Below are positions 184-54,445 of a stretch of 64,000 nt of DNA, piece after piece; position 1 is the first letter of the stretch, and the number at the start of each line of letters is the position of its first letter. A model generated the notes under the pieces. It did no database searches. It saw nothing but the letters and a program-made list of their open reading frames with translations, and had not been told where the DNA came from. This DNA is from Alphaproteobacteria bacterium. Lineage in GTDB: Bacteria; Pseudomonadota; Alphaproteobacteria; Rs-D84. The translations under genes and the position numbers were made by a program. The stretch lies in NCBI GenBank assembly GCA_009784815.1, contig WQXN01000001.1:65857-129856 (forward strand), read 5' to 3'.

Positions 184-212
184 CGCCGCCCCTAAAGGGG
201 CGGTTTTTTATT
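184..212 (+). terminator. Rho-independent terminator
   Basis: GCCGCCCC-TAAA-GGGGCGG stem-loop followed by TTTTTTATTT. Confidence 0.7.
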
Positions 213-227
213 TGTATAGAAAAATAT

Positions 228-257
228 TTGACAAAATGCGCAGGGGGGGGGTAGACT
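228..257 (+). promoter_or_regulatory. Sigma70-like promoter with a G9 tract filling the 3' half of the spacer
   Basis: TTGACA 228-233, 18-bp spacer ending in G9 (243-251), TAGACT 252-257. AAGGA RBS at 269-273, ATG at 280. Confidence 0.55.
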
Positions 258-279
258 TAGGAAGCAAAAAGGATTTATT

Positions 280-717
280 ATGCTTAACACAAGGCAATGC
301 GTTAAATATGCTCCGCATATAAAAGGGCAGACTTACAACGGTGTAAAGGTGGAATATATCGGCCCAAGCCTTCTTCCGGTGTTAAGAAAAAAATGGCCCA
401 CCAAGGCGGGTATGCTTCTTAATGTCTACGCCTATGCGATAGATCCCAAATACTTGGACTTCGATTACGAGGCGCGGTCCGAAACTACCGGAATGCAAGG
501 CGTGCGCGTCACTATTCCGGAATACTATTGCAGGGGAGATGCGGTTATATGTTTTGTGGAAACCGAATACGGTTATACCGATCCCGTATATTACGGAGCT
601 TATGGCGATGAGGTTAAGGCTTTGGCGAGAGGCATTTACGACTGCGTGAATAGAATGGCCAATTACGAATATATGAGAAAGCATCTTATAGAGTCCGCAT
701 TGAGGCTGGTGCATTAA
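280..717 (+). CDS. Hypothetical protein (145 aa), no family recognised
   Basis: ORF with an AAGGA RBS 6 nt upstream and its own promoter. The antisense ORF 382-714 is taken as a shadow ORF. Confidence 0.6.
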   Translation: MLNTRQCVKYAPHIKGQTYNGVKVEYIGPSLLPVLRKKWPTKAGMLLNVYAYAIDPKYLDFDYEARSETTGMQGVRVTIPEYYCRGDAVICFVETEYGYTDPVYYGAYGDEVKALARGIYDCVNRMANYEYMRKHLIESALRLVH

Positions 718-6678: not shown

Positions 6679-7146
6679 ATGTTAAAGCCTATATCGAAAG
6701 AGGGTATGGATACCCTGCTTTCCGAGCTTGTTAAATTAAGGGACTATGATCGCCCTCCGCTTATGCTGGCAGTCCAGGCCGCGCGCGAGCTTGGCGATCT
6801 TAAGGAAAACTCGGAATATCAGATGGCCCGCGAGAAGCAGAGGCTTATAGACCACAGAATTAGGGGCCTAGAGCATATTATAAAGGAATCCCAGGTAATT
6901 CACATATCCGACCTTTCGGGCGATGTCATAACTTTTGGCGCGACGGTCGAATTAGAGGACGAGGAAGGAAAAACCGCGACATACCAGCTGCTTGGCGATA
7001 CAGAAAGCGATATCGAAAAAGGCAAAATTTCCATCACCAGCCCCATAGGAAGCGCCCTGAAAGGAAAGAAAAAGGGCGATTTCGTGTCTATCAGGGCGCC
7101 AGGCGGTGTAAAGGAATTCGAGGTCCTATCCGTAAGGTTTGTCTGA
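6679..7146 (+). CDS. greA: Transcription elongation factor GreA
   Basis: N-terminal coiled coil with ...AARELGDLKENSEYQMAREKQ. C-terminal ISITSPIGSALKGKKKGD. Confidence 0.95.
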   Translation: MLKPISKEGMDTLLSELVKLRDYDRPPLMLAVQAARELGDLKENSEYQMAREKQRLIDHRIRGLEHIIKESQVIHISDLSGDVITFGATVELEDEEGKTATYQLLGDTESDIEKGKISITSPIGSALKGKKKGDFVSIRAPGGVKEFEVLSVRFV

Positions 7147-8825
7147 TGGCTATAAGAATACTGGCCGATTCTTTGATAAACCAGATAGCGGCGGGCGAGG
7201 TGGTAGAACGGCCCGCTTCGGTGGTTAAAGAATTGATAGAAAATGCGCTGGACGCAGGCGCGGACCATATAATCGTCGATGTGATTGACGGCGGAAGAAC
7301 TACTATTTCCGTTATGGACAACGGGCGCGGTATGCCCCGCAAGGATCTTGTTAAATGCGTCATGCGGCACGCCACCAGCAAACTTGCCGACGATGATCTT
7401 CTTAACATCTCTACTATGGGATTCCGAGGCGAGGCTATGCCGAGCATCGCATCCGTATCCGACATGACCGTGTCGAGTTTTTATGAAGGCGAAGGTCTGA
7501 AGCTTGACTGTTCGACGCTTGCCGTGACTCCAAATTCGGTTACTGCCGGAACGATCGTTCGCGTCGATAATCTTTTTATGAAAACCCCCGCCAGGTTGAA
7601 ATTTTTAAGGTCCGACCGGTTTGAACTGGCAGCGGCGCGCGAAGTCTTGCATAGGCTTGCCCTGGCGCGCCCTGATGTCGGATTTTTATTCAACCAGAAT
7701 GATCGTTTTCCAAAAGGTCAGGATATCTTAGAGCGTGTGTTAAGCGTAACGGGAAGCGACTGCGAAGGGCGCCTCCGTGAGGTTGATATGCACGACGGCG
7801 AAGTTGGGATTAATGGTTTCGTTTCCGATCCGGGCTTGCGGCGCGCATCCGCCGCGGATCAGTTTTTATTCGTGAACGGCCGGCCCGTCAAGGACAAGCT
7901 TTTGGTGGGCGCTCTGCGCGCGGCGTTTTTCGACGTCATGCATGCGCGCGAATTTCCTGTGGCTGTTCTTTACATTAATCTGCCCAACCGCGACGTCGAC
8001 GTCAATGTTCATCCCGCCAAGACTGAAGTGCATTTTCTGGAGCCGTCCCGTATCCGCAGTTTGATGGTCCGCGCCGTGCGAAAGGCCATAGCCGATCCGC
8101 TGAACAAAATCCCCGGGGTTTCCAAGACTGCAGGCGTTTGCGCCGCGCAGTTTTTGGGAAACTCTTTTCCCGGCTTTTTGGATAAAAATTGCGTAAAAAT
8201 GCCGGATGATAACGGGCCGATTCCTTCATTATTTTCAGAGGAATCCAAGGATTTTACGACTATGCCTTTGGGTAGGGCTATAGGTCAGATTTTTAACAAA
8301 TACATTCTGGCCGAAAATAGCAAAGGCCTGGTTCTTGTCGACCAGCACGCGGCGCATGAAAGGATTGCTTACGAAAAGCTGCGTAGTCGCAAAATGCCGG
8401 CTCAACCACTTTTGGTTCCCAAAGTCATAAGCATGAGGCCAAGCGAAGCCGCGGCCGTTCTGGAGGCAGCCAATGATTTGGCCGAATCCGGGTTAGTCCT
8501 GGAAGACTTCGGAAACGGGTCCCTTGTCGTGCGCGAGGTTCCTGTCTGCATGGACGCCGAAGTTGAAAATCTGTTAAAGGTCATAGCGACCGAGGTTCGG
8601 GATAAGGGATCGTCAATCGCTCTGAACGAGCGGCTTCATTCCAAGCTTGCCAATTTCGCCTGTCACAGGTCGGTCCGCGCGGGGCGGAAACTAAGCCTTA
8701 TGGAAATGGACGCGCTGCTTCGCGACATAGAAAATACCGATCGCGGCGGCGTCTGCAATCACGGGCGCCCCGTTTATAAAGAAATTTCTATTGCCGAGCT
8801 TGACGCGATGTTTGAAAGAAGCTAA
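7146..8825 (+). CDS. mutL: DNA mismatch repair protein MutL
   Basis: GHKL ATPase motifs IAAGEVVERPASVVKELIENALDAGA and DNGRGM. C-terminal dimerisation domain with QHAAHERI. Confidence 0.95.
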   Translation: MAIRILADSLINQIAAGEVVERPASVVKELIENALDAGADHIIVDVIDGGRTTISVMDNGRGMPRKDLVKCVMRHATSKLADDDLLNISTMGFRGEAMPSIASVSDMTVSSFYEGEGLKLDCSTLAVTPNSVTAGTIVRVDNLFMKTPARLKFLRSDRFELAAAREVLHRLALARPDVGFLFNQNDRFPKGQDILERVLSVTGSDCEGRLREVDMHDGEVGINGFVSDPGLRRASAADQFLFVNGRPVKDKLLVGALRAAFFDVMHAREFPVAVLYINLPNRDVDVNVHPAKTEVHFLEPSRIRSLMVRAVRKAIADPLNKIPGVSKTAGVCAAQFLGNSFPGFLDKNCVKMPDDNGPIPSLFSEESKDFTTMPLGRAIGQIFNKYILAENSKGLVLVDQHAAHERIAYEKLRSRKMPAQPLLVPKVISMRPSEAAAVLEAANDLAESGLVLEDFGNGSLVVREVPVCMDAEVENLLKVIATEVRDKGSSIALNERLHSKLANFACHRSVRAGRKLSLMEMDALLRDIENTDRGGVCNHGRPVYKEISIAELDAMFERS

Positions 8826-12284: not shown

Positions 12285-13292
12285 TTATATATCTATCCGA
12301 TCCAATATACGGTTCATTTGGCCGCGGATATTGCCGTCTTGTCTTTTTAACTGGCTGCGGAGAGTTTTATGTATATCGGTGATTTTTAAGTCGTTTATCC
12401 CGGCGCGATCCAATACCCTTTGCCAGGCGCGCTTGGGGTCCACAAGATGCCCCGCTCCCGCTCCTGTGCTTGGAAATACGAATTTAGATTTCTGCGGGAG
12501 GGATTCAAGCAGCACTACCGCTTGGTCCGCAAGGGGTTTTCCGTTCCAAGTGTTAAGATTCAGGTCCAAATCGTCCCAGCGCATTGCTAAAACTTTGCTT
12601 TTGTTCGCAAAGCCGTAGGCCAGCATTTTAAGGGCCGCCCTCATGTTAGGGTTTTTTTCCATATCTATCGCGCGGCCGATCAGCGAAAATTCCCCCGCGC
12701 TGATATGGCGCGATCCTTTTCGTTCGAAAAATTTTTCAAGATCTTTTGTAGGATTGTCCGATGCGTATCCTTCTTCAATCGCGGCGTTGAATATAGCCGA
12801 CATGGTTTCCCGCATACGGTTAGCGGTGGACTGGCCGTTTTCCTGGGCGATTTTTGAATGCAGTAGCGACAACTGCGCCGGCGTTATGTCGGAAAGCTTC
12901 AGGGGCAGGACTTCGGTCCAAAGACGCCCTATGTTGCGTTCCAGTTTTTTCTTGGATGCCGCTTCACGCCGGACTCTGTGTTTCAAAAACAATTCCGTCA
13001 TTTTGCCCAAAGTCATTTTGCCGGTCCTGATCGGCAGCGGAGTTTTCATTTTAATTATCGCTGTACCGGCCAGCTCGCGCGCGTCGTCTATGTCTATGTC
13101 GGGATAGTTGCCCAGTATCTTGCGGGTGTCTTTTCCGCGAGCTCGTTTTCTGACGAAAAATGTTTTCGCTCCGTTTGCCGTAATATAAAGCTGAAGGTCG
13201 GGATGATACGAATCACGCACCACTTCAAAGCCGGTTTTCGGCGGTATCAGGCTGTCCAGGACGGCGGAAGTGAAGGGAAAGCGAAGCGACAT
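12285..13292 (-). CDS. Degenerate P4-type (Arm/DUF4102 N-terminus) phage integrase, probably catalytically dead
   Basis: The N-terminus ...FEVVRDSYHPDLQLYITANGAKTFFVRKR... is the typical integrase arm-binding domain. The ORF is only 335 aa. The LAMRWDDLDL and IHKTLR relics are present. I cannot find the C-terminal His/Trp...Tyr segment, and the first catalytic Arg position reads N/K. Confidence 0.6.
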   Translation of the reverse strand: MSLRFPFTSAVLDSLIPPKTGFEVVRDSYHPDLQLYITANGAKTFFVRKRARGKDTRKILGNYPDIDIDDARELAGTAIIKMKTPLPIRTGKMTLGKMTELFLKHRVRREAASKKKLERNIGRLWTEVLPLKLSDITPAQLSLLHSKIAQENGQSTANRMRETMSAIFNAAIEEGYASDNPTKDLEKFFERKGSRHISAGEFSLIGRAIDMEKNPNMRAALKMLAYGFANKSKVLAMRWDDLDLNLNTWNGKPLADQAVVLLESLPQKSKFVFPSTGAGAGHLVDPKRAWQRVLDRAGINDLKITDIHKTLRSQLKRQDGNIRGQMNRILDRIDI

Positions 13293-13372: not shown

Positions 13373-13403
13373 TTGACATTTGGCCGCGGGGGGGGGGTAG
13401 CAT
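13373..13403 (+). promoter_or_regulatory. Sigma70-like promoter with a G10 tract in the spacer (pyrE-pyrF)
   Basis: TTGACA 13373-13378, 19-bp spacer ending in G10 (13388-13397), TAGCAT 13398-13403. pyrE ATG at 13455. Confidence 0.5.
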
Positions 13404-13454
13404 TCGGATCAGAGGGCGAGAGAGGCAACGAAACTATAACCTAAAGGAAATGTT

Positions 13455-20641: not shown

Positions 20642-20682
20642 ATTCATATATGTCAACTAATCAGTCAAAAAGGAAAGGCATT

Positions 20683-21066
20683 ATGAATAACAAAATACTA
20701 TTCGCTTCTGTTGCAATATTGGCCGCGGTTTCCGCAAGCGCGAACCAGTTGAAATTCTTTCGCGCTCTTAGTTGGGAAAAAGCCCATACCGCGCCCTTCG
20801 TATTTTCCGAAGACGTGCGTCCTGCCGCGCGCAACCAGATGGTGCGTTTCGATTCGATCCTATCGCGCTGCGGACTCAAGCTTGTCTATGTTCGCGCGAA
20901 CGACGGACGCAATGTCGAAATGAACGGAATAGCTTCATTTAAATTGGATGATACTTTCTGGAACGGCAAGGTGGCGATACACGCCTCAAGCCAGACCAGG
21001 ACCCTTTGTCCGAACGGCATTAATATAACCATCGGCGACGAGGAAGCCTCGGTGCGCTGGAAATAA
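20683..21066 (+). CDS. Small secreted protein, unknown function (127 aa)
   Basis: Signal peptide MNNKILFASVAILAAVSASA. AAAGGAAAGG RBS before the ATG at 20683. Confidence 0.65.
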   Translation: MNNKILFASVAILAAVSASANQLKFFRALSWEKAHTAPFVFSEDVRPAARNQMVRFDSILSRCGLKLVYVRANDGRNVEMNGIASFKLDDTFWNGKVAIHASSQTRTLCPNGINITIGDEEASVRWK

Positions 21067-21146: not shown

Positions 21147-21713
21147 ATGGGCGATTGGGGTTCCGCTGTTTATGTGACCAGTCAGATTTTGCAAGGCTTG
21201 GCGTATCTGCTTCTGATGTTCACCTTTTTTATAATAAGCAGAAAATTGCAACTTGCGGCCGTTATTATCGCAAGCGTGTTTATGGGCGCGGGGTTTTTAT
21301 TGCTAGGGGGGGGCATGGGCGCCGCTGTGCTTGGCGTCGCTGTATGCCGCGATGTTACAAGTTATTATCTTAACGGCGCAAGGAAACCAGAAGACAGAAG
21401 CAAGATTACGAAATCGGATTGGTGGCTTTTGGCTTTATGGGCGACTTTGGCGTCCGCTCTCTCGCTGTTCGCTTATCACGGGTTGCCAAGCCTGTTCGCC
21501 TATTTCGGCATGATGTCTTTTACCGTCGCCATATGGCAGAAAAATCAGGCGATATATCGTATTCTTGGCGTTCTTGCCGCGGTCTTTTGGATTATCTATA
21601 ACGTGGTTCTGGATTCTTTTGTGGGCACGGTGTTGGAGGGCGTATTCCTGTTATCCGCCGTCATGGGCTTGATATTGTATTTGAAAAATTACAGTTCTTT
21701 CAGAAAAGTATAA
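21147..21713 (+). CDS. Integral membrane protein (weak resemblance to the YgjV family)
   Basis: About six hydrophobic helices. AAGGA RBS before the ATG at 21147. Contains an in-frame G8 tract at 21306-21313. Confidence 0.6.
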   Translation: MGDWGSAVYVTSQILQGLAYLLLMFTFFIISRKLQLAAVIIASVFMGAGFLLLGGGMGAAVLGVAVCRDVTSYYLNGARKPEDRSKITKSDWWLLALWATLASALSLFAYHGLPSLFAYFGMMSFTVAIWQKNQAIYRILGVLAAVFWIIYNVVLDSFVGTVLEGVFLLSAVMGLILYLKNYSSFRKV

Positions 21714-22403: not shown

Positions 22404-23222
22404 ATGTTTCAAAGAATTATAGCGGGAATCTTCGCGTTATTGGCCTTCGCGCCTATGGCCGCGCATTCCTGGTCGGATCGAAGCCAACTGGTTTGGGAAG
22501 GTCCCGAAGATGTATCGCCCGAGAATACTGCGGCGTCTGCATCGTCGGCGCCGGCGGCGGCCGCTCGGCCGTCCAGGCAGGCAAGACCTTTTGCTCCGCA
22601 GGAATCGAATTTTCGGGCGTCTGGTCTTCGCGTCAGCAATCAGATTATAACCAATAATTTCGGCGATCAGTATTCTTTCTCGGGCGGGCCGGACCTTATG
22701 CACGGCAACAACGCTCCGGCTGGATTCAACGATAATTCGCAGGCCGCTATGCCGCTTTTGACTCAAGGCATGGTCGAGGATGACGGCGGAGCGGCGCTTG
22801 CCGTGACCCAGAGCGACCGCCGCGCGCCGGCCGCAAACCGCGATGTTATGGTGTCTGACGCCGTCGTTGACGGCGGAACCCGCGTTATGAGCGCCGACGA
22901 TATGGCCGAGGATTTTGACGCTGCGGCCGACGCCGGTTCCGGCGCGGACGTTGTTAAAAGCTGGGTAGTGATGTCGGGCAAAACCCTGCGCGAAGTTTTG
23001 GGCGAATGGGCCGAGAACGCCGGTTGGGATCTTGTATGGAATACGTCCCGCGAATATCCGATTTCCGCAAGCGCCGTTTTCGAAGGTCGGTTCATGGACG
23101 TGTCGTCGGCTTTGGTGCGTAACTTTGCGCGCGCGACGCCGGTTCCGCACGCAAGATTTTATAAGGGGAACAAAGTGCTTGTCATAAGCACTTTGGAAGA
23201 TGGAGACAGCAATGCTTATTAA
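22404..23222 (+). CDS. Periplasmic protein with a C-terminal TcpQ/PilL-like domain (type IVb pilus accessory)
   Basis: Signal peptide MFQRIIAGIFALLAFAPMAAHS and an Ala/Pro/Asp-rich linker. The C-terminus SWVVMSGKTLREVLGEWAENAGWDLVWNTSREYPISASAVFEGRFMDVSSALVRNF...FYKGNKVLVI matches the TcpQ/PilL signature as I remember it. Confidence 0.65.
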   Translation: MFQRIIAGIFALLAFAPMAAHSWSDRSQLVWEGPEDVSPENTAASASSAPAAAARPSRQARPFAPQESNFRASGLRVSNQIITNNFGDQYSFSGGPDLMHGNNAPAGFNDNSQAAMPLLTQGMVEDDGGAALAVTQSDRRAPAANRDVMVSDAVVDGGTRVMSADDMAEDFDAAADAGSGADVVKSWVVMSGKTLREVLGEWAENAGWDLVWNTSREYPISASAVFEGRFMDVSSALVRNFARATPVPHARFYKGNKVLVISTLEDGDSNAY

Positions 23223-24777
23223 AAAATATTTTGTCATAGCTTTGGCGGCGGTCGCTTTGGCGGCTTGCAACAAAAAGCATTCGACGCAGGTGGCAGGCGA
23301 AGTCGACGACGGCTTCATAAACGCGTTCCGCGCTATGGAGCAGTCCCGTATGCCGCAAAACCGCATGACGGTCGACAGCGTGTCCGCAAGCGAGGGCGTA
23401 TGGCTTGGGGCGCGTTCCACCACCATCCGGCACAGGAACGATCTGCCGCGCAGATTCGAGGGAGAAAACGGAGTGACCATAGTTCTGGACGAGCCTGCGA
23501 CGCTTAACAGTTTGGCCGGTACCATTCACGAAGTAACCGGAATTCACGTAACGATCGACGGGCAGATTTCATCCGAAAAACTGGCCCGGACTTTTCAAAT
23601 TTCGCACAGCGGAAAGCTGTCCGATCTTTTGACCCGCGTCGCAAACGAGGCGGATGTCATGTGGTATTACGACAAGGAGAGCATAGTCTTCTTCGAGACC
23701 GAGACCAGAACCTTTAACCTATTCGCGCTTGGCACCGACATAAGCTTTTCGTCCCGCATTCAGACCGACGATTCAAATCAGGTGTCCTTGGAGTCCAACC
23801 TGCGCGAGTGGGATGAGATCGAGCGTTCGATCACAGGAATCTTGGACGGCGCGTCAAGCGCGCGCTTTACCGTGTCAAGGTCGCTTGGTACTATAACCGT
23901 CACCGCTTCCCCGTCCGCAATGAAGCGCGTCGGAGATTATATCGCGCGTCAAAACCGCCGTTTGTCCCAGCAGATTTCAATCGATGTCAAAGTCTTGCAG
24001 GTGTCCATTCAGAATGCGAACGCCGTGGGCCTGAACCTTACCGCCGCCATTCAGTCGGTGGGCGGTTTGCGTCTTGCCTCGAACCCGTCCAACAATCTTT
24101 CGGCCGACACTATAGGCGCTATATCGGGCTTGTCGGTCGCCGTGCTGGACAACGCCACGACTTTGGGCTCGGCGGCGGGCACTACCGCTTTGGTTCAGGC
24201 TTTGGCCAGCCAGGGCAAGGTATCCTTAATGACCAACGCTTCGGTCACGACGCGCAACAACCGCGTGGCCCCGGTCAGCAACGTTCGTAACACCGGATAT
24301 ATCCGCCGCATAGAATCCCGAACTTTCACGACCGTCGAATCCTCGAGCGTCGAGCAGGACACGGTCGAAACCGGATTTTCGATGCAGTTGCTGCCGAACA
24401 TTATCGAGAACGGCCGCGTATTGTTGCTGTTCAAGATGTCATTGCGCGAATTGATCCGCATGAATACCGCTCAAATTGGCGGAGGTGGCGGAAGTCCGGG
24501 CATCACAATACAGATGCCTGACGTCGAAGAGCGCGCGTTTATGCAAGAGGTAATTTTGGAATCGGGGCAGACTTTGGTCATATCGGGATTCGAGAGGCAG
24601 ACGAACGACGATTCAAGATTCGGTATCGGAGAGGCGGACTTTATGGCGCTGGGCGGATCGCGCGAGACTTCAAGCGCGCGCGACGTTCTGGTCGTAATCT
24701 TGACGCCGCAGGTTCACATATCCCCCATGGATAGCGAACGCGCCGCTATGCGTGAATTCGGTGCGCCGCTTAATTAA
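23212..24777 (+). CDS. Lipoprotein secretin (R64 PilN / BfpB / TcpC type)
   Basis: Lipobox LAAC after MLIKKYFVIALAAVA. Secretin C-domain: ISIDVKVLQVS..., GKVSLMTNASVTTRNNRVAP, GFSMQLLPNIIENGRVLL, QTLVISGFERQ. GGAGA RBS before the ATG at 23212. Confidence 0.85.
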   Translation: MLIKKYFVIALAAVALAACNKKHSTQVAGEVDDGFINAFRAMEQSRMPQNRMTVDSVSASEGVWLGARSTTIRHRNDLPRRFEGENGVTIVLDEPATLNSLAGTIHEVTGIHVTIDGQISSEKLARTFQISHSGKLSDLLTRVANEADVMWYYDKESIVFFETETRTFNLFALGTDISFSSRIQTDDSNQVSLESNLREWDEIERSITGILDGASSARFTVSRSLGTITVTASPSAMKRVGDYIARQNRRLSQQISIDVKVLQVSIQNANAVGLNLTAAIQSVGGLRLASNPSNNLSADTIGAISGLSVAVLDNATTLGSAAGTTALVQALASQGKVSLMTNASVTTRNNRVAPVSNVRNTGYIRRIESRTFTTVESSSVEQDTVETGFSMQLLPNIIENGRVLLLFKMSLRELIRMNTAQIGGGGGSPGITIQMPDVEERAFMQEVILESGQTLVISGFERQTNDDSRFGIGEADFMALGGSRETSSARDVLVVILTPQVHISPMDSERAAMREFGAPLN

Positions 24778-24807
24778 GAATTGTCGCGGGGAAAATTTTG
24801 GAGAGAG

Positions 24808-26076
24808 ATGGCAGGGCAGGTAATATCTATTGGTCGGAAAAAATACGCGACCGGGCTTTTTTGGCAGCCGGTCGGATCCGCTCGCTCGGCCAAGGATGTC
24901 GCCGTTAAAATATCAGAATCTAGTCCCAAGGCGAAATTCAGATATTACGCGGAATATCGCAATCAGGTTGGGCTTGGATCCTTCGCGCTGAAGCATGCCG
25001 CCGGAATGACTCCTTTGGCTGCCGAAGTCGCCGAGAGTTTCGGAGATTCTACGTCGTTCGCCGCCGCCTTCAAAGTGGGGTCGGGCTATTATACTTTGGC
25101 CGTAAGGAACGGCGTTATACTATCTGATTCGGACCGCCTTTTTAATGATGAGAATGCTGCGCGCGCCGCTTATGCTTCGTTGCTGGAACTGCCGGATTGG
25201 TCTCTTCGCGTCGCTCCGGAATCATGGGGAATCCAAGGCGCCGAGGCGCGAACTTTGGAAGACTTGGTGACCGGCCGTGTCAAAAGCGCGCTGCGTCCGA
25301 TACATACTACATTCGGTTCGGTATTCAATATCGCGCTTGTTCTTGCCGCGATATTGGGAGTTCTGTATTTCTTTAGTGCCGACATAAATCACATGATTGC
25401 GCGCCGCCCAGCCGCGTCGGCCATGACCGAAGAATCGGCCCGCCGCTTCCACGAGGAAATGGCCGCGCGGAATATTCGGCCCGAGGCGCCAGCGCCAAAG
25501 CCCGAAGCGTTAGTTATGCCTTGGGATGACATCCCGGACCATTCGGAAGTGTCCGCCCGATGCGTGCGCGCGATAGCCTTCGTCATGCAGCCCGTGTACG
25601 GCTGGAACGTCGTGTCCGCCGAATGCCAGAACGGATCAATCCGCGCGCTTATGCGCCGCGACTACGGCACGGTCGAAGACCTTTATGCCGTGGTCAACAC
25701 CATTATGCCGGGAATCGGTATACGCATAACCGGAACCGCCGGGTCCGACGCCGAACTTACCGGAGTTTTCGCAAAAACGCCGGGAGAATCCGCCGCGCCG
25801 GAATGGTCCCTGTCCGAGATCGAGCGGCGCGTCCGATCGGTCTTCCAGCAGGTCAATATGCAGGTCGATATTTCCCGCGGCCGCGAGATAGTTTCAAGCG
25901 AAGACGGGTCGGTGCGGAAAACCGCCGAGTTCGTGCGCCTTCGCGCGGATTCAAAAATCATGCCGGTAGAATTCGCTAAATTCTTGGAAGGAATTCCGTC
26001 CGTCGAGCTTGTGTCGATAAGATGGGACAATGTCCGAAACATTTGGAGTTACGAGGAGAAGATATATGCAAAATAA
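24808..26076 (+). CDS. Bitopic membrane protein in the PilO position of R64-type clusters
   Basis: One TM segment (VFNIALVLAAILGVLYFF). The assignment rests on gene order between the secretin and the PilP-like gene. GGAGAGAG RBS before the ATG at 24808. Confidence 0.5.
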   Translation: MAGQVISIGRKKYATGLFWQPVGSARSAKDVAVKISESSPKAKFRYYAEYRNQVGLGSFALKHAAGMTPLAAEVAESFGDSTSFAAAFKVGSGYYTLAVRNGVILSDSDRLFNDENAARAAYASLLELPDWSLRVAPESWGIQGAEARTLEDLVTGRVKSALRPIHTTFGSVFNIALVLAAILGVLYFFSADINHMIARRPAASAMTEESARRFHEEMAARNIRPEAPAPKPEALVMPWDDIPDHSEVSARCVRAIAFVMQPVYGWNVVSAECQNGSIRALMRRDYGTVEDLYAVVNTIMPGIGIRITGTAGSDAELTGVFAKTPGESAAPEWSLSEIERRVRSVFQQVNMQVDISRGREIVSSEDGSVRKTAEFVRLRADSKIMPVEFAKFLEGIPSVELVSIRWDNVRNIWSYEEKIYAK

Positions 26077-26788
26077 AAAACTTATTATATTCGCCGCATT
26101 GCTGGGCTTTGCCACGCCCGCTTACCCGACCGAAATAGATCTGGACGCGTTCGATACCGATGGGTCTGTGTTCCTTCGCATAACCGAGCTTGAACAGGAA
26201 AAAGTCCTGATGAGGCTTGAAAAAGAGCGCGCCCAGCTTGAACTGGACCTTAAGCGAATCGAGGTGGAAAGGCAACGCATCGCGGGCACCGTCCAAACCG
26301 CCTCGGCCGGTTCTGTCGCAGAACAGGTCGCGGCCGGAATCGAAGCCGAGCGTAAAAAGCTTGCGGCCGAGATGGACAAGATCAGAAAGCAGATGGAGGA
26401 TATGAGAAAAGCCGAAGCCGCGCCCGAGCGCGTTCAGGCTAGAACTGCCGCCCAGCCCGCGCCCGTCGAAGAAGACGAGCTGGATATATCTGATCTGTTT
26501 CGCATAATAAGCATTACCGGCAGCGATGGAAACCTTACCGCAAATATTGAAAACATTACCACCGGACAGCGCCGCAGATTGGGCGCCGGACGGTCGATAG
26601 ATGGGTTTAAAATAGTTTCCGTATCGGCCGACGACGGGGTGGTGTTCGAACTGGACGGCGAGCAGTTTCCTCTTGGGCTGATACAAAACGCTAGGCCCGT
26701 TTTGGCTGCCCCCGCCGTGTCAAGGCCCGCGCCAACTGCCGCCGCGGCGCCCGCCGCAACCGGACCTGCCGCCAGACAGGAAAGATAA
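26066..26788 (+). CDS. PilP-like periplasmic protein (signal peptide, coiled coil, C-terminal beta domain)
   Basis: MQNKKLIIFAALLGFATPAYP, then a charged coiled coil, then ITGSDGNLTANIENITTGQRRRLGAGRSIDGFKIVSVSADDGVVFE, which resembles the PilP/GspC HR-type domain. Confidence 0.55.
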   Translation: MQNKKLIIFAALLGFATPAYPTEIDLDAFDTDGSVFLRITELEQEKVLMRLEKERAQLELDLKRIEVERQRIAGTVQTASAGSVAEQVAAGIEAERKKLAAEMDKIRKQMEDMRKAEAAPERVQARTAAQPAPVEEDELDISDLFRIISITGSDGNLTANIENITTGQRRRLGAGRSIDGFKIVSVSADDGVVFELDGEQFPLGLIQNARPVLAAPAVSRPAPTAAAAPAATGPAARQER

Positions 26789-28417
26789 ATGGCGCAGAAC
26801 ATCGGAAATTTTTCAAAAGATTCGCAAAATTCCGTTCCGGGTAACGTTGGAAACATGGATTCCAAAAAAATAGTGGATTTCCTGTTCGCAGAAAACAACC
26901 AGCTTTTGACCGGATTCAAAGGACGGCTGGAACTTCCCAAAGACACTCAGAATCTGGTCGCGTATTTCCTGGGCGGAGAATTGGTTATATCCCGCACCCA
27001 CAAGTTCGACGGCCGGGTGCTGGCTTTCGTTTCCCTTATTCAGCGCGAAAATCTTCCGCTTAAAGAGCCTTTCTACAGCGATCTTGGATTGTTGTCTGCG
27101 ATTTACAAGTATGGCGATGAAAAACTTGGCACAGAGGTGGCGAAATCCCGCCTTGATTACGACAACCAGATGCAGAAGGATTTCGTCGACATAGTCGCGC
27201 GTGCGTCTGCCATTAAAGTTTCTGACATACATATCGAAGTTGCGAACCACACCACGATTTATTTCCGCCGTGACGGAGGAATGCAAACCGTCCTTGAATA
27301 CAGCGCCGCATGGGGAGAGAGTTTTATCCGTGCCGCCTTCGCTTCCGCCGATATTTCAAGCAGCAACTACGCCAAAAACGAATATCAGTCCGCGCAGAAG
27401 GACGGCCGCACTCCGCTTCGCGGCACGAAAGACCTTTACCTTCCCGCGGGCGTTCTTGGTATCCGTATGCAGTTCAGTCCGATCGCCTTCGGATCGCGCT
27501 ATGTCGTCATGCGCCTGTTGTACGAAAACCCTACCGATGGAATCAGAATCGAACAGGAGTTCACAGAATACGAACAAAGAATCCTGGCGCGCCTAAGGTC
27601 TTTCCCGACGGGCCTTGTGGTTGTGGCGGGACCTACCAGCAGCGGAAAATCCACCACGCTTTTTCAGAACATGACATTGATGCTACGCGAGCGGGATTAC
27701 GAAATAAACCTGATAACCGTCGAAGATCCGGCCGAACGCAAAATCTTCGGCGCCCGCCAGATGCCGGTTGTGAACGCCGGTACCGAAGAGGCGCGCGACG
27801 AAAAATTTACCGAAGCTTTGGCTTCGGCCCTTCGTTCCGATCCGGACGTTCTTATGGTCGGAGAAATCAGGACCCTGTCGGTCGCGGCTCTGACGCTTAA
27901 GGGCGCGCTGTCCGGTCATTTGGTTTGGACTACATTGCACGCCAATTCCGCGCTTGGTTCGCTGACCCGTCTTATCGATATGGGCATCGAGGCCTTTAAA
28001 TTGAAAGACGAAACTATGATGAGGGGGCTGATGTCCATGAGGCTTTTCAAGACGCTTTGCCCCCACTGTCGCGAGCCGATTGCGCGCCATCCGGACACAA
28101 AGATCTATTCGCGCGTTTTGGACTATTTCGGCGAGATCGGCTTGGCGCAGATCTTTATCAAAGGCCGGGGCTGCGAGCAGTGCGGCGGAAAAGGCACCGT
28201 AGGCCGGGTCAAAGCCGGCGAGATAGTGCTGACCGACGCCAAACTTCTTGAGATGATGACGAATGGCGACAAGGCGGCCGCGTTCGCGTATTGGCTTGAA
28301 AAGCAGGGCGGGCGCACTTTGAAGGAAGCCGCGTCCGAATTGATGTTAAGGGGGCGCGTCGGGGCCGACGAACTGGAACGATGGGTCGGCCTGATCGACC
28401 AGCCGACCGTTTATTAG
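26789..28417 (+). CDS. GspE/PilB-family assembly ATPase (R64 PilQ type)
   Basis: Walker A GPTSSGKST, Asp box ITVEDPAE, Walker B DPDVLMVGEIR, His box GHLVWTTLHAN, tetracysteine CPHC...CEQCGGKG. Confidence 0.9.
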   Translation: MAQNIGNFSKDSQNSVPGNVGNMDSKKIVDFLFAENNQLLTGFKGRLELPKDTQNLVAYFLGGELVISRTHKFDGRVLAFVSLIQRENLPLKEPFYSDLGLLSAIYKYGDEKLGTEVAKSRLDYDNQMQKDFVDIVARASAIKVSDIHIEVANHTTIYFRRDGGMQTVLEYSAAWGESFIRAAFASADISSSNYAKNEYQSAQKDGRTPLRGTKDLYLPAGVLGIRMQFSPIAFGSRYVVMRLLYENPTDGIRIEQEFTEYEQRILARLRSFPTGLVVVAGPTSSGKSTTLFQNMTLMLRERDYEINLITVEDPAERKIFGARQMPVVNAGTEEARDEKFTEALASALRSDPDVLMVGEIRTLSVAALTLKGALSGHLVWTTLHANSALGSLTRLIDMGIEAFKLKDETMMRGLMSMRLFKTLCPHCREPIARHPDTKIYSRVLDYFGEIGLAQIFIKGRGCEQCGGKGTVGRVKAGEIVLTDAKLLEMMTNGDKAAAFAYWLEKQGGRTLKEAASELMLRGRVGADELERWVGLIDQPTVY

Positions 28418-28426
28418 AGGTGAATT

Positions 28427-29500
28427 GTGGCGACTAAACTGGATATTATTTATTCAAAATTCATGTTCAAGCTGGACACCGACAAAAGGCTTGGGTCCTA
28501 TAGAAAATTATCCAGCCTGCTGCGGAACGACTTCACTTTGACCGAAGCTTTGATCCGGCTGGAAGCTATAGAAAGCCGGGACGGAAAAAAACCGAACGAG
28601 CCTTTTGCTATAGCGTTCCGCGAATGGCAGGCCAAACTTGAGCGAGGATATACTTTTTCCGAAGCCATATCCGGCTGGGCAAGCGAGGTGGAAATTTTAA
28701 TGCTTTCGTCTTCCGATATATCCAAGCTTTGGATCGCTCTGGACAACACCGTCCGCATAGTGGAGGGAAGCAGAAAAATCCGAAACGCTTTGGTGTCCGC
28801 TATTACTTATCCCATGTTCCTGCTTGCCGCTACTTTCGCGATCATAATAATGGTCGGAGTCTATTTGCTTCCGCCTATGCTCGAGGCCGCGGGTCGCGAC
28901 GTCGTATGGCGCGGCACCGCGCGAAGCTTGGTGGCAACATCGCGGTTCTTTGGTGATAATTGGATCATAATGCTTGCGGCATTCGTTTTTGCTTCGGTTA
29001 TTATCGGTTATTCCATGCCTTTGTTCCGCGGGCGGATTCGCGCTTTGTTCGACAATGTTCCGCCTTGGTCGCTTTACAAAGTGTCCGCAAGCGCCGGATG
29101 GTTGGTAAGTCTTGCGTCCCTGATCAAGGCGGGCGCAAGTTTGCCCGAAGCGCTTAAAATGATGTCTGGAAATTCCAACAAATACTTGGCTGACGTGTCG
29201 GACCGCGCGCTTGAAGGCGTGATAGCGGGGCAAAATCTGGGCGATGCGCTGGACGTGGCGGGCCTGCATTTCCCGAACGACGAGATTATCGGAGATCTTA
29301 AAATCTATGCCGAAATGGACGAGTTCGACAAAAACCTTATGAATGTCGCGACCGAATATATGGACGGATCGGTAACGCGGATCGAGTCGGCCGCAAGCGT
29401 TCTAAACTCGGTCGGCATACTGCTGATCTCGGTCGTGATAGCCTGGGTCGTATTCGGAACTTTCGAAATGCAGGACCAGGTGGCCGCCGCTATTTCCTGA
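28427..29500 (+). CDS. GspF/PilC-family inner-membrane platform protein (R64 PilR type)
   Basis: 357 aa, GTG start, three TM segments and two cytoplasmic helical repeats (...EALIRLEA..., ...LPEALKMMSG...). Confidence 0.8.
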   Translation: MATKLDIIYSKFMFKLDTDKRLGSYRKLSSLLRNDFTLTEALIRLEAIESRDGKKPNEPFAIAFREWQAKLERGYTFSEAISGWASEVEILMLSSSDISKLWIALDNTVRIVEGSRKIRNALVSAITYPMFLLAATFAIIIMVGVYLLPPMLEAAGRDVVWRGTARSLVATSRFFGDNWIIMLAAFVFASVIIGYSMPLFRGRIRALFDNVPPWSLYKVSASAGWLVSLASLIKAGASLPEALKMMSGNSNKYLADVSDRALEGVIAGQNLGDALDVAGLHFPNDEIIGDLKIYAEMDEFDKNLMNVATEYMDGSVTRIESAASVLNSVGILLISVVIAWVVFGTFEMQDQVAAAIS

Positions 29501-49364: not shown

Positions 49365-51084
49365 TTATCTTTTTGAAAACTTTGCCCAAATATTCTTAAA
49401 ATGGCCGTTGGATTTTTGCAATTCGGAAAAAGTTCCGCGTTGCACTATTTTTCCTTTGTTGAACACGTATATTTCGTCGAAAGAATCCAGAAGATTCAGT
49501 TTATGAACCGAGAAGATCAAAATCTTGTCTTTAAATTTTTTTGATATTTGATCCATAATCGTCCGTTCGGTCAAACCATCGACCGAGCTGGTGCATTCGT
49601 CGAACAACATTATCCCGCTGTCTTTTCCGGCAAGCAATCCGCGTGCAAGCGCAAGGCGCTGCTTTTCTCCGCCGGATAAATTCACTCCCTTTTCGAACAG
49701 GTGGGTGGCAAGCCCTTTAGGCAGACGTTCCATGACCGAATCGAATTTGGAAATTTTTACCGCTTCTTCTACGTCTTTATGGGAATATTTTGCGCCTACC
49801 GATATGTTATATTCGATCGTGTTTTCGAAAAATTCCGGGTCTTGCGGTATATAGATCGAATGGCCGTCCAAGTGCGATATATGTTTCGCGCCGACGTTGG
49901 GTCTTAGGATTCCGCGTATAAGCATCATAAAAGTGGATTTACCCGAGCCGCTTGCGCCCACCAATGCGATTTTCTTGCCGCGTTTGGCGGTGAATTCAAA
50001 ATCGTTTATTTCAACTGCGGGAGATTTCGCGTCACCGTATCTGAAGCTTAGGCTCCTGATGTTAAACGAGTTCGGCGCGCCGCGGGATTTTTTGGATGAT
50101 ATGTCCTGGTGCGGTTCCTTGAATATAACGTCCGCCTGTCTTATTGTTATTCCATTTTCAACCATTTCGTCGTATGTTTCGGCGAAATCGAAAAAATTGT
50201 CGGCGGCGCGGCTTAGATAAAGTTTAAGCGCCACCAGCACTCCGATATTTATGACGTTTCCGGACCGGTACGAGTCGTACGCGTGCCAAAGGATCATTGC
50301 ATACCCCAGCACTATTATGCTGATCACCATAAACGACCACTTGCGCTGGTTTACCATAGTGCTTTTATTAAAATCTGGGTATATAGCTTCGTTGGTCGCT
50401 TCTATATTCGCTTGGGTTTTTAGTCCAAGCCTTAGGCTTAGGATCGTTCTCATGTTTGATACGTAGTCTTGGAACACGCTGCTAAGCTTTTGGCTTTTCA
50501 CATGAAGGTTCGCCCACAGGACTGAAAGTTTGCCGTTCATGAAATGCACGAACGCCACCAGGATCATAAGCCATATCGAATAGACCGCGGCCATTTTCCA
50601 GTTCAGTAAATATAAATACACTATTGCGAAAGTCAGACTAAATACTATGTTTATGTATGCGTCGATTTTCGATATGAATGTCGATATGGCGCCTTTGGCG
50701 GCGTTTATTATATGGATCGATTTTCCCGAATGGTTGCTGTTGTGCCATGATTGGCCCAGCTTTCGCATATGCTTGTAAGCGCTTAGCGTAAAGCGTTTTT
50801 TAACGCGGAATAATTCGCGATCCCTTGCTATTCGGCTTGCCTGGCGCACAAGAACATGCCCCGTATGCGTCGCGCACATGGCAAGCATGAATATTACGAA
50901 AGTCTTAAATTGAAGGTGTAGGGGGGGGGGTGGAAAGATCGAGGCTGGATATGGCGCGGCCAAAAAGCATTGGCCCGGCAAGCGCAAGCCCCGTCGAAAT
51001 CATAAAGCCCGCCGTAAACAAAGCCACGCGCCATTTATTTGCGTATTTGAAAGATGTTTTGGCAAGGATTAAAAGATTTATCAT
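49365..51084 (-). pseudogene. ABC exporter (fused TMD-NBD) interrupted by a frameshift at a C10 tract; phase-variable, pseudogene or homopolymer sequencing error
   Basis: The NBD is intact (GASGSGKST, LSGGEKQRLALAR, IMLFDECTSSVD). TM1 (MINLLILAKTSFKYANKWRVALFTAGFMISTGLALAGPMLFGRAISSLDLS) is read from the ATG at 51084 in a different frame and ends at a TAA just after the tract at 50921-50930. C9 would join the two frames. Confidence 0.75.
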
Positions 51085-51133
51085 ACTGGGATTATTTCAA
51101 AAATCAGGAATAAATTCAATGAATAATTGCCGA

Positions 51134-51162
51134 TTTATAGGATCTAATAATTAGCTTGACAA
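51134..51162 (-). promoter_or_regulatory. Candidate promoter for the ABC exporter, with its -35 overlapping the divergent promoter's -35
   Basis: Minus strand reads TTGTCA (51162-57), 17-bp spacer, TATAAA (51139-34). TTGTCAA is the reverse complement of the plus-strand TTGACAA. Confidence 0.4.
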
Positions 51163-51182
51163 AATACGGGGGGGGGTAGAAT
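51156..51182 (+). promoter_or_regulatory. Sigma70-like promoter with a G9 tract in the spacer
   Basis: TTGACA 51156-61, 15-bp spacer ending in G9 (51168-76), TAGAAT 51177-82. AGGAGG RBS, ATG at 51225. Confidence 0.55.
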
Positions 51183-51224
51183 ACGGCGTTAGATTAAACG
51201 AATCGCAAAAAATAGGAGGCGAAA

Positions 51225-52235
51225 ATGAAGTTAATGACCAAAGAGCAGTTTGAAAAGAAGCATGGGCGCGTTTATCACAATGGGATCCATATTGATCATG
51301 CGCCTAACGACGATTTGAAAGCAGAGTTGCTTGCCGAATATCAGCCCGAGCACAGGTGGATGATAGCCAAACATTTTCCTGGTAGTCATTTTTGCTCGCT
51401 GGGCCTGCATGATCTGAAAATCATTTTTGATAATCTTAAAGAAGAAACCAACGCGAATGTAATTCATTATTATTTGAGATATTTGGATCACAGATATTTC
51501 AGCTGTGGCTGGGGATGGTTTTCGCGCGGGGGACAGGGGCTTTCCACGCATAATAGGTCTGTTTCGGATATCGATAAGAACGAAAGGGCCGAGGGTGTAA
51601 AAGTTATAAAACTGTTCAAAGAAAAATTCCAAGAATTCGGATATTATCCAAAATATGGAAAAATGCAGTATATGAACGACTTGATAGTTATATATGGCGG
51701 AAAAGTGGATAATGCGCGCGAGGATTCGGAAGCAAGAAAAAGGCTTAGGGATAGAGAGATCGCAAGCGACAACGATGAACTGATCGATCAAAAAGTTAGA
51801 TCCATGTGCGACCAAGGCGAAAACACCTGTGATAAAAACGATAAATACGGCCATGACGTGTTCGATCGCCAAAAAAATATAGAAACAAAGGAAGACTTAA
51901 AAAACTGGCTATTTGAAGTGTCGGCCGTCATAGGTCTCATAGCGACGCCCACCAAAACTTATCCCGATATGATGACTATGAAAACATTCCGGAAGGTTCT
52001 TGAGATGTTTAATATAGACTTGTCGGATATCATGACGGACGACCGCGGAGAATTGGTTCCGTTCGAATCATACGAAGAAGACGACAAGATACATGAAATT
52101 GTAAGCTTCTTCCGTCAAGCGAGCCGCCGTGTGGACTGCCTATTGTTTGCCAATATGAGGGATATTAAAAAACCCGGCGTGGTTCAGAGTATCAAAAATG
52201 CGGTATCAAAATCTGTCCTGTCACCAAGTCATTGA
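51225..52235 (+). CDS. Hypothetical protein (336 aa), orphan, visibly AT-richer than its neighbours
   Basis: Strong RBS (ATAGGAGGCGAAAATG). Charged, Lys/Asp/Glu-rich, with no signal peptide. No family recognised. Confidence 0.65.
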   Translation: MKLMTKEQFEKKHGRVYHNGIHIDHAPNDDLKAELLAEYQPEHRWMIAKHFPGSHFCSLGLHDLKIIFDNLKEETNANVIHYYLRYLDHRYFSCGWGWFSRGGQGLSTHNRSVSDIDKNERAEGVKVIKLFKEKFQEFGYYPKYGKMQYMNDLIVIYGGKVDNAREDSEARKRLRDREIASDNDELIDQKVRSMCDQGENTCDKNDKYGHDVFDRQKNIETKEDLKNWLFEVSAVIGLIATPTKTYPDMMTMKTFRKVLEMFNIDLSDIMTDDRGELVPFESYEEDDKIHEIVSFFRQASRRVDCLLFANMRDIKKPGVVQSIKNAVSKSVLSPSH

Positions 52236-53630
52236 ACGGGTGGTGGTTTGAGAACGGCGATCACCGAACTGATCCCGTTCCGTCTGTCTTAAAATTTGAA
52301 ACTGGTCGGTCGATATTATTCTTAAGACGAAGGTGCCGTCGGTCCGCTCGGACAATACTGGTATAATCCGACTCTCGTGCACTCCGCTGTCAATCAATAC
52401 TTGGTTGATTATGGCAAGTCGCCGCGCGGCAAGCCGTTTCGCGTCGGTGTTTCGCACTGCGTCTTCCGACACGGAAATCTGTATCGCGCGCTTGGGGTTG
52501 TTGGCAACCATAGCCGCGTATTCGCTTAAGATATTGAAGTTGTCCTGAGTCAGCGCGCTGTCGTTGTTGGCAAAGCTCATCCTGATTTCAAGCGTGCGGG
52601 GCTGCGCAGCGCTTGCGTTGATTGATTGGTTGCCGACGAATCCTTCCCTGACCGTAACTTCCCAATTATCCGACGCCATATCGAAGTCATCCATCGGCGA
52701 GAAAGTCGACAAATGTCGGTTTTCCGATATATAAGCCTTTTGGAACGCCTGCTTTAACGCGCGCGGGCTAAGCTGGTTTATATTCTGCGGTTCGGGATTT
52801 TTCAGTGCGAATTCTTCGCGCGGAGCTACGCGCACCACGGGTTTTGTTTCCAATACGCGCTGGCGCTGGTCTTGCGAAGGTTCCGCGGTTCTGGCCGTCA
52901 AAGTCGCGCCGACATTTGGGGTGGGGGCGGCCGATATTACTTGTTCGCGCACAGGCTGCGGTCGCGGTGCCGCAACTCGCGCGGCTGCGCGCTCGTTATT
53001 TTTATTCTCGATCATTTTGGCTATAGCGTTGTCCAACTGGGCCTGGCGGTTATGCGCGGGCCGCACGGCCGGCCTTTGCGCTACGCGCGTAGGCTGCTGA
53101 ACCTGCGCTTGTCTTATTATAGGAACCGGAAGCGGATCGGGCGGGAGAACTTCGGGCATAGTCGCAGCGCGCGCTATGCGCGGGGCGGGGGTGCCAAGCA
53201 AGCTTTCTTCCGGCAGTTCGAAATCGTCGTGAAGCCGCACGAATTCGTGAGCTTGCGGCATGCGTATAGCGGTCGGCGCCGCGGCGGGTCTGGTTGGAGG
53301 AAGCTGTTGCGGCGGTCTGGATTCAAAGTCGCCTTGCTGCCTTTGACCGCTGACCCACAATTCCGAATTGGGGCGGCGCGGCAGCAGCACGTCGGCGGAT
53401 TGATTATTCTGCGGCTGTTGAATCGGGCGCGGGGCGGGGCGGCTTGTCACCGATCGGGCCGATGCAGTCGCCGGAGTTTCTTTGGACATAATGGTTTTTA
53501 CGCCGAACAGTTCTTTTGCCGAAACCGGACCGCGTTCAAGTGACACCGACGGCAGACGCGCGGCGGCCACGGCTTGGAACGAAGCAAGCGCCGCAACTAT
53601 CGCAAAGATGCCGATTTTATTCCCCTTCAT
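52221..53630 (-). CDS. Secreted Pro/Gln/Ala-rich protein with an OmpA/MotB-like C-terminal domain
   Basis: Signal peptide MKGNKIGIFAIVAALASFQAVAAA (start at the ATG at 53630). C-terminus ...FANNDSALTQDNFNILSEYAAMV...TDAKRLAARRLAIINQVLIDSGVHESRI resembles OmpA_C. Confidence 0.65.
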   Translation of the reverse strand: MKGNKIGIFAIVAALASFQAVAAARLPSVSLERGPVSAKELFGVKTIMSKETPATASARSVTSRPAPRPIQQPQNNQSADVLLPRRPNSELWVSGQRQQGDFESRPPQQLPPTRPAAAPTAIRMPQAHEFVRLHDDFELPEESLLGTPAPRIARAATMPEVLPPDPLPVPIIRQAQVQQPTRVAQRPAVRPAHNRQAQLDNAIAKMIENKNNERAAARVAAPRPQPVREQVISAAPTPNVGATLTARTAEPSQDQRQRVLETKPVVRVAPREEFALKNPEPQNINQLSPRALKQAFQKAYISENRHLSTFSPMDDFDMASDNWEVTVREGFVGNQSINASAAQPRTLEIRMSFANNDSALTQDNFNILSEYAAMVANNPKRAIQISVSEDAVRNTDAKRLAARRLAIINQVLIDSGVHESRIIPVLSERTDGTFVLRIISTDQFQILRQTERDQFGDRRSQTTTRSMTW

Positions 53631-53713: not shown

Positions 53714-54445
53714 ATGAAGAAATTTAGAATTCAAAAAAGATTATCCGCTTATCAGATGGATCCGACCGGAAGCCTGCGTCCCTTGATGCTTATGAACGAG
53801 CTGCAGGCCGCGGCAGATATTCATGCCGAGGAAATAGGCTTAGGCGTGTCATTTTGCCGCGAAAACAGCCTTGCCTGGGTCGCTTTATTCTTCCATGTGG
53901 ATATTCCGAAAATGCCGAACGCCTCGAACGACATAGTGATCGAAACCTGGCCCAGTTCTCGCGAGGGGGGGCTTCGCGCAATCCGCGATTTTTTGATCAC
54001 GGACGCACAAACGGGCGAAGTCTTGGTTCGCGCCACAAGCCAGTGGGTGATGATAGACATGATGACGCGCAGGCCGGTGGCTTTCGCTGAAAGGATTCCA
54101 AACCTGGTCGAGATTAACGAGCGCGCGCTTGATTTGCCTTTTGAAAAATTTCCCGATTTTGATCCGAATTCCTCGCAGATTGTCGCTCGGCGTTATGACG
54201 ACTATGACTTGAACCAGCACGTCAACAACGCCGTCTACGCGGTCTGGGCCACCGAAGCTCTTGGCGTGGAATTCCGCGGAAAACACAGGCTGCGCGGCAT
54301 TTCGCTGAACTTCAAGCGCGAAATTTCATTCGATGTTAAGGAGTTGAATATCGAAACGGCTTATAAGGATAAAAAGTCCGCCCACCGCATATCTTCGGAA
54401 GGCGTAATTCACGCTTATGTCGTCTGCGATTGGGTCCCAAGATAA
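53714..54445 (+). CDS. Acyl-ACP thioesterase family protein
   Basis: YQMDPTGSLRPLMLMNELQAAADIHAEEIGLG...LAWVALFFHVDIPKMP...IETWPSS. The second hotdog half carries YDDYDLNQHVNNAVY. Start at the ATG at 53714. Confidence 0.75.
   Translation: MKKFRIQKRLSAYQMDPTGSLRPLMLMNELQAAADIHAEEIGLGVSFCRENSLAWVALFFHVDIPKMPNASNDIVIETWPSSREGGLRAIRDFLITDAQTGEVLVRATSQWVMIDMMTRRPVAFAERIPNLVEINERALDLPFEKFPDFDPNSSQIVARRYDDYDLNQHVNNAVYAVWATEALGVEFRGKHRLRGISLNFKREISFDVKELNIETAYKDKKSAHRISSEGVIHAYVVCDWVPR

Follow-up and report, generated by a model that had tools for sequence, protein, structure and literature searches.

Long G tracts in the spacers of predicted sigma-70 promoters: candidate slippage switches in an alphaproteobacterial MAG

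In Bordetella pertussis the fim2 and fim3 promoters, which depend on the activator BvgA, carry a poly-C tract that alters how far the activator/-35 region lies from the -10 element. The tracts of Campylobacter jejuni lie mostly within reading frames, and to our knowledge this organism is without MutS and MutL. Among the poly-G tracts of C. jejuni a length of 9 is modal; tracts of G8-9 favour insertions, and those of G10-11 favour deletions (PMC3401435). In Neisseria meningitidis, expression of porA is controlled by a poly-G tract between the -35 and -10 elements, and a 17-bp spacing is optimal (PMC7864442). The genome of Treponema pallidum (~52% G+C) carries many poly-G tracts of at least 8 nt. 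One of these lies between the -35 and -10 elements of tp0126, which encodes an OmpW homologue and is transcribed best at 17-nt spacing, whereas the tract associated with tprL has a predominant length of 9 G (PMC7864442).

We analyzed a 64-kb stretch of DNA from an alphaproteobacterial MAG (64,000 nucleotides, hereafter the window). A layout of the porA/tp0126 type, in which a homopolymer of at least 8 nt lies between the -35 and -10 elements upstream of a gene, was found at a position close to the start of the window (locus 1). The best explanation of this element and its counterparts elsewhere in the genome is that they are probably sigma-70 promoters with slippage-prone spacers of the porA/tp0126 kind. 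Unlike at fim2/fim3, no activator site is evident at these promoters and the -35 boxes already match the consensus. They also differ from porA in that the tract always adjoins the -10 element (0–1 nt) and the -35 element is perfect in the members with 9 or more G/C. The downstream genes differ as well: porA encodes a surface porin of a pathogen, whereas the genes here are cytoplasmic-looking orphans, pyrE/pyrF and a gene for a radical-SAM-like enzyme. The likeness to porA is the G run of ~9–11 nt within a sigma-70 spacer, the length of which in porA sets the -35/-10 distance and hence transcription (PMC7864442). T. pallidum provides measured length heterogeneity and reporter effects, whereas our evidence comes from the sequence; the tract density is higher in this unrelated alphaproteobacterial MAG than in T. 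pallidum, with five tracts of at least 9 nt in 64 kb.

Several features of the C. jejuni type were also found. G/C tracts are over-represented, one tract in the 5′ coding part of an ABC exporter gene toggles the reading frame and resembles the classic ON/OFF frame switches of the C. jejuni set, and multiple G/C tracts occur with a modal length of 9, as in the known phase-variable poly-G tracts (PMC3401435). Unlike in C. jejuni, most of the long tracts here lie in promoter spacers and mutL (mismatch repair) is present. As the mutL gene appears to be full-length the genome is not obviously repair-deficient, which we counted against switching; no mutS was seen in the window. The absence of mismatch repair is not universal among phase-variable species. 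This kind of switch is already known, and the genome would be a further example of it with promoter-centred tracts. What is notable here is how dense the tracts are, that they lie almost exclusively in promoter spacers, and that pyrE/pyrF is included.

Judged from its sequence, the segment from 228 to 257 is a sigma-70-type promoter of the orphan ORF that follows (Table 1), with a transcription start predicted at ~263–264. An intrinsic terminator closes the upstream SPOR-domain gene directly before this promoter. An earlier reading, made from the sequence alone, had given the promoter coordinates, an 18-bp spacer and a distance of 22 nt to the ATG, all of which were exact when we reread the sequence. 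That reading had also called the 145-aa ORF an orphan. Searches of Pfam, NCBIfam and PHROGs gave no family match, and HMMER, run exhaustively against 1.84 billion representatives, returned only the protein itself and one marginal match. The 145-aa ORF is a true orphan.

Table 1. Coordinates of the tract promoters, other long tracts and associated features (window positions unless a flank piece of the ENA contig is named).
Feature	Position	Strand	Description
Intrinsic terminator	185-204	+	GCCGCCCC-TAAA-GGGGCGGT, then a T run; 8 pairs, 7 of them GC; tail TTTTTATTTG
Locus 1, -35 hexamer	228-233	+	TTGACA, 6/6 consensus
Locus 1, mixed 9-nt segment	234-242	+	aaatgcgca; spacer half nearest the -35
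Locus 1, G9 tract	243-251	+	candidate slippage site; fills the half of the spacer (18 bp, 234-251) nearest the -10
Locus 1, -10 hexamer	252-257	+	TAGACT, 4/6 consensus
Ribosome-binding site	269-273	+	AAGGA, ahead of the 145-aa ORF
145-aa orphan ORF	280-717	+	46% G+C; ATG at 280, 22 nt past the -10
mutL	7146-8825	+	mismatch repair; apparently full-length
Locus 2 promoter	13373-13403	+	TTGACA 13373-13378, N9, G10 13388-13397, TAGCAT; spacer 19 bp
Purine-rich pyr 5′ leader	13410-13452	+	begins just after the predicted -10; ~85% identical in relative L010
Locus 3 promoter	16038-16011	minus	TTGACA 16038-16033, aattta, C9 16026-16018, t, TAAAAT 16016-16011; spacer 16 bp
G8 tract	21306-21313	+	in frame (GGG codons) in the gene of a YgjV-like membrane protein
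C10 tract	50921-50930	minus	5′ coding part of the ABC exporter gene (49365-51093)
Locus 4 promoter	51156-51182	+	TTGACA 51156-51161, aaatac, G9 51168-51176, TAGAAT; spacer 15 bp
336-aa orphan ORF	51225-52235	+	downstream of locus 4; 42% G+C
G7 tract	53965-53971	+	in frame in an acyl-ACP thioesterase gene
Flank promoter, G9	L013:14467-14505		TTGACA-N9-G9-TAGACT; before an operon of orphan genes; design identical to locus 1
Flank promoter, G7	L012:2159-2187		TTGATA-N9-G7-c-TATAAT; spacer 17 bp; before a histidine-phosphatase-family gene

Three sister promoters occur in the window. Locus 2 precedes a divergent pyrE-like gene followed by pyrF. Locus 3 lies before a radical-SAM-like gene (15982-15059, minus strand) and, at 11 of 12 consensus positions, is the top match of our promoter scan in the first 20 kb; its tract reads C on the sense strand. 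Locus 4 lies upstream of an ORF whose 336-aa product was without match in Pfam, NCBIfam and PHROGs. We also surveyed 20 kb of sequence flanking the window in the ENA contig of the same genome (pieces L012 and L013). The flanks (20 kb) contained four further tracts: two in promoters, one in-frame coding G9 and one intergenic G8. By sequence, then, at least six tract promoters in ~84 kb of this genome appear to form one family. Those in the window are properly placed before genes with ribosome-binding sites and are among the highest-scoring matches of the promoter scan. The -35 element is a perfect TTGACA in five of the six, the G7 member being the exception with TTGATA, and the -10 elements of the five G/C9 members are all sub-consensus (TAGACT twice, TAGCAT, TAGAAT and TAAAAT). 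The five G/C9-10 members all have spacers off the 17-bp optimum (15, 16, 18, 18 and 18–19 bp), as compared with 17 bp in the G7 member.

The statement of the sequence-only reading that the tract touches the -10 hexamer in all four window promoters applied to loci 1, 2 and 4, whereas at locus 3 a single t intervenes. Its range of 15–16 bp for the locus 3 spacer was settled by the coordinates as 16 bp. For the pyrE promoter it had reported G10 and a 19-bp spacer, which is correct for the window, whereas the ENA assembly has G9 and a spacer of 18 bp. Its remark that all four spacers depart from 17 bp agreed with our values (18, 18–19, 16 and 15 bp), as did the prediction that a slip of 1–2 nt would retune each promoter, since one or two slips would bring every spacer to 17 bp.

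The abundance of long tracts greatly exceeds expectation. Five G/C runs of at least 9 nt are present in the window (loci 1–4 and the coding tract at 50921-50930), compared with 0.05–0.6 in order-0 to order-3 Markov simulations, bearing out the earlier estimate of fewer than one expected and five present. Counts of G runs on the plus strand are bimodal (G5, 19; G6, 2; G7, 1; G8, 1; G9, 3; G10, 2), dropping about five-fold per added nucleotide as far as G5, with a separate peak at G9–G10. Seven G runs of at least 7 nt occur on the plus strand of the window, and no C run exceeds 6 nt on that strand. TTGACA is found 29 times on both strands of the window, as its composition predicts. Nevertheless, TTGACA lies 6–9 nt upstream of four of the five long tracts, correctly oriented, with TAnnnT 0–1 nt downstream, and the probability that at least four of five tracts would have TTGACA 5–10 nt upstream is ~3e-10. 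The shorter G runs were considered as promoter elements and rejected, as nearly all G5–G6 runs are coding and none adjoins a -10 element.

Long G runs could also arise without any adaptive role, by slippage from short G runs near -10 elements followed by fixation through drift. Any effect on expression would then be incidental or mildly harmful, and the G9/G10 differences described below would be technical. We regard this explanation as possible, though on balance unlikely. It gains from the finding that G9 is the mutational equilibrium length in another species (PMC3401435), and the off-optimum spacers could be slightly deleterious expansions. Against it, five of the seven tracts of at least 9 nt in the window and flanks lie within promoter spacers, each with a perfect -35 element, and no long tracts were seen elsewhere between genes, including 5′ leaders and terminator regions. 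Moreover, the abundant A/T runs of 6–8 nt in the window have undergone no similar expansion, with none exceeding 8 nt, and the coding tract lies near the 5′ end of its gene, as in known phase-variable genes.

The composition of the tract promoters points to the explanation that we favour as probable, a slippage-prone spacer with a switching effect. The best promoters of the window without a tract are mostly of the form TTGnnn-N17-TATAAT, with an imperfect -35, a consensus -10 and a 17-bp spacer. The G/C9 tract promoters are the reverse, with a perfect -35, a weak -10 and a spacer that departs from 17 bp. This is the combination in which the activity of a sigma-70 promoter should depend most on spacing. 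Slipped-strand mispairing during replication would add or remove one G, such that the locus 1 spacer would be 17 bp with G8, 18 bp with G9 and 19 bp with G10. Because a promoter with a strong -35 but a weak -10 needs the right spacing, each slip should alter transcription stepwise, up or down; at locus 1 the assembled G9 form would be sub-maximal and the G8 form maximal. Switching at these promoters is likely on sequence grounds. Against a switch, pyrE/pyrF is a housekeeping operon, which would be unusual for on/off phase variation, and the uniform G9 length of the five tracts in the ENA assembly would fit a fixed element too.

A fixed element of this type would be a length-stable G9 segment that marks a promoter class with a co-regulated gene set and no mutational switch. 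It could serve as a spacer that is rigid and A-form-like, provide a G at -14 in the manner of an extended -10, or be bound by a regulator. The stereotyped position of the tract is an argument for such a class: the tract-to--10 distance is 0–1 nt in all six promoters (~1e-4 for random placement in the spacer), and the gap between the -35 and the tract is N9 in four and N6 in two. The perfect -35 in five of six, the common G9 length in the ENA assembly and the presence of pyrE/pyrF among the genes can be read in the same way. In contrast, the C tract on the sense strand of locus 3 makes strand-specific recognition unlikely, and spacers of 15, 16, 18 and 18 bp do not provide a constant geometry. 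Like tracts also occur in coding regions, where they alter the reading frame, and the orthologous pyr promoter of a relative (L010) has only G4 with a 17-bp spacer. Together with the confinement of inter-assembly differences to these tracts, described below, these findings make a fixed class improbable.

Other ways of reading the tracts were considered and rejected. Alternative sigma factors did not fit, as the elements do not resemble the sigma-32 (CCCCATNT), sigma-54, sigma-28 or ECF consensus sequences; C is on the sense strand at one locus only. The G tract could instead be the initially transcribed region, with reiterative transcription from a -10 element overlapping TTGACAAAAT, but the alternative boxes were poor and inconsistent across loci. 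A mobile or duplicated promoter cassette was also rejected because the four loci align only at the -35, the tract and the -10.

The window, which matches a MAG with the NCBI locus tags FWD33_, was compared over ~47.4 kb with a MEGAHIT contig of the same genome from ENA; the genome is also represented in Logan contigs. There were no substitutions and only two one-base indels, and both were a G10 in the window versus a G9 in the ENA assembly, one at the pyr promoter tract (13388-13397) and the other at the ABC coding tract (50921-50930). The remaining tracts had the same length in both assemblies (G9 at 243, 16018 and 51168, G8 at 21306 and G7 at 53965), and in the ENA assembly all five long window tracts are exactly G9. 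Because the contigs are nearly equal in span (237,851 bp, and 238,032 bp in ENA) and lack substitutions, a single set of reads may underlie both assemblies, in which case the G9/G10 difference could be a homopolymer miscall of technical origin; this likewise favours an origin of the tracts as a by-product of slippage. The comparison shows that the tract-length call is unstable precisely at these tracts, and it does not by itself prove heterogeneity in vivo. The sequence-only reading had proposed that the tracts serve as contingency switches or form an unusual promoter class. The recurrence of tract promoters and the restriction of indels to tracts agree with the former proposal, whereas locus 1, with G9 in both assemblies and no difference between them, does not add to it. 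In a related look-up, the protein of the ORF at 20650-21066 had no match in other assemblies.

Sequencing or assembly error, such as the poly-G artefact of two-colour chemistry, or coincidental promoter-like boxes would make both the tracts and their architecture spurious. In favour of this, short reads are prone to error at homopolymers, and the lengths of two tracts are not the same in both assemblies. However, the tracts are short (9–10 nt), internal to a 238-kb contig and uniquely flanked, and they are present in the output of three pipelines or more (JGI/NCBI, ENA-MEGAHIT, Logan); on these grounds the two-colour artefact was rejected. The association of tracts with promoter boxes (P ~1e-10) and the recurrence of the architecture outside the window likewise leave an artefactual or non-promoter origin with very little probability.

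The second indel has a direct consequence for a protein. With C10, as in the window, the N-terminal 57 codons of the ABC exporter are in one frame and the remainder in another, whereas the C9 of ENA and Logan leaves the ORF intact at 572 aa. The Pfam ABC_membrane match covers profile positions 3–267 with C9 and 71–267 in the frameshifted form. A one-G change at this tract, which lies near the 5′ end of the gene, therefore toggles the reading frame. Two forms of the protein are present in the protein collection, one of 545 aa (ENA/Logan) and one of 507 aa that is N-terminally truncated (NCBI/JGI). The C10 state could represent an OFF phase variant; otherwise it is an error of assembly that has entered the annotation. 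In either case the annotations of this MAG disagree at such tracts, with the exporter truncated in NCBI/JGI and longer in ENA/Logan.

We looked for relatives in which the tracts could be compared. A scan of genome and metagenome contigs for close relatives with the PyrE-like protein found only 29–34% identity, and a protein search gave nothing above 43%. No G/C run longer than 6 nt was present in ~25 kb from two relatives whose PyrE-like proteins are 42–43% identical. In one of these, L010, the integrase-pyr-gyrB-dnaN-dnaJ neighbourhood is preserved. The L010 pyr promoter reads TTGACT-N17-TATTCT, and no more than GGGGc stands beside the -10 element. As this promoter stands before the same conserved pyr leader, it supports the assignment of the locus 2 promoter, and the comparison suggests that the long G tract grew from a short G run in this lineage only. 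The G4 of L010 at this position also fits slippage without an adaptive role, for which it would be the seed.

The pyr leader (CAGAGGGCGAGAGAGGCAACGAAACTATAAC..AAAGGA) is ~85% conserved even though the PyrE-like protein is only 43% identical, with counterparts at L010:714-760 and L008:9965-9997. It had no Rfam match, including to the PyrR element, and no stable fold, and it resembles the PyrR-binding motif. The leader may be an unrecognised cis-regulatory element. Control of the reiterative-transcription or PyrR type at locus 2 was considered and rejected; neither a PyrR-binding leader hairpin nor a G or U run where transcription would start was found, and since the locus 2 G tract is upstream of the -10 element it is not transcribed from this promoter. 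The integrase-like gene (12285-13292, minus strand) is divergent from pyrE and has its own promoter, TTGACC-N17-TATAAT. Only its arm-binding and central domains were matched, the catalytic domain being without match, and its occurrence at the same position in L010 indicates an old resident rather than a recent insertion. A cluster resembling a Tcp/type IV pilus or type II secretion system (22404-29500; TcpQ, a secretin, a PilO-like protein, a T2SS-E ATPase and a T2SS-F protein) lies in the window and also adjoins dnaJ in L010. The window had no Rfam families or tRNA.

Another way of viewing the whole set is that G9 is a dedicated promoter module of a symbiotic alphaproteobacterium, defined by a perfect TTGACA, N6 or N9, and a G9 that abuts a TAG-type -10, and used either for stochastic or rheostat control or to be read by a G-tract-reading factor. 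About one in eight transcription units of the window would be affected, core pyrimidine synthesis among them. We consider such a module doubtful. If the tracts do slip, as we think probable, the genome would carry a dense set of mutational expression switches that act mainly through promoters and less through reading frames. Such switches would govern lineage-specific orphan genes, an ABC exporter and pyrimidine biosynthesis, and promoter-spacer phase variation would extend beyond a few pathogens to a metagenome-only lineage. The natural variants of one architecture (N6 or N9; G7, G9 or G10; G or C on the sense strand) would also be suited to a study of spacer tuning in sigma-70 promoters.

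All 11 G/C tracts of at least 7 nt carry G on the plus strand, whatever the orientation of the gene (window 243, 13388, 16018, 21306, 50921, 51168 and 53965; L012:2174; L013:12381, 14176 and 14491). The two-sided P for this bias is ~0.001, or ~0.016 when GC skew is allowed for. As judged by GC skew the plus strand is G-rich throughout the window and is presumably the leading strand, and the bias suggests a replication-strand asymmetry in how tracts arise or persist.

Genes linked to tracts are low in G+C: the 336-aa ORF has 42%, the 145-aa ORF 46% and the ABC exporter gene 45%, as compared with 50.5% overall. Those behind tract promoters are often lineage-specific orphans (window 50000-52300; L013:13400-19500). 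An island of orphan genes lies beside a CopG-like gene just beyond the window, and one Logan contig stops at the edge of this island. The G8 tract at L013:12345-12394 is accompanied by ATGATA-N17-TATTAT and lies between convergent genes, a setting in which a promoter would not be expected; the tract may be non-functional, or the element may give rise to a small or antisense RNA. At L013:14500-14540, ~4.5 kb past the end of the window, the G9 promoter is followed directly after its -10 element by a perfect 9-bp hairpin and a T run (GCGGCATAT-agag-ATATGCCGC-ATTTTTTATT) that resembles a terminator. Because the predicted start lies inside the 5′ arm of this hairpin, read-through from upstream would terminate, whereas transcripts from the promoter itself would escape.
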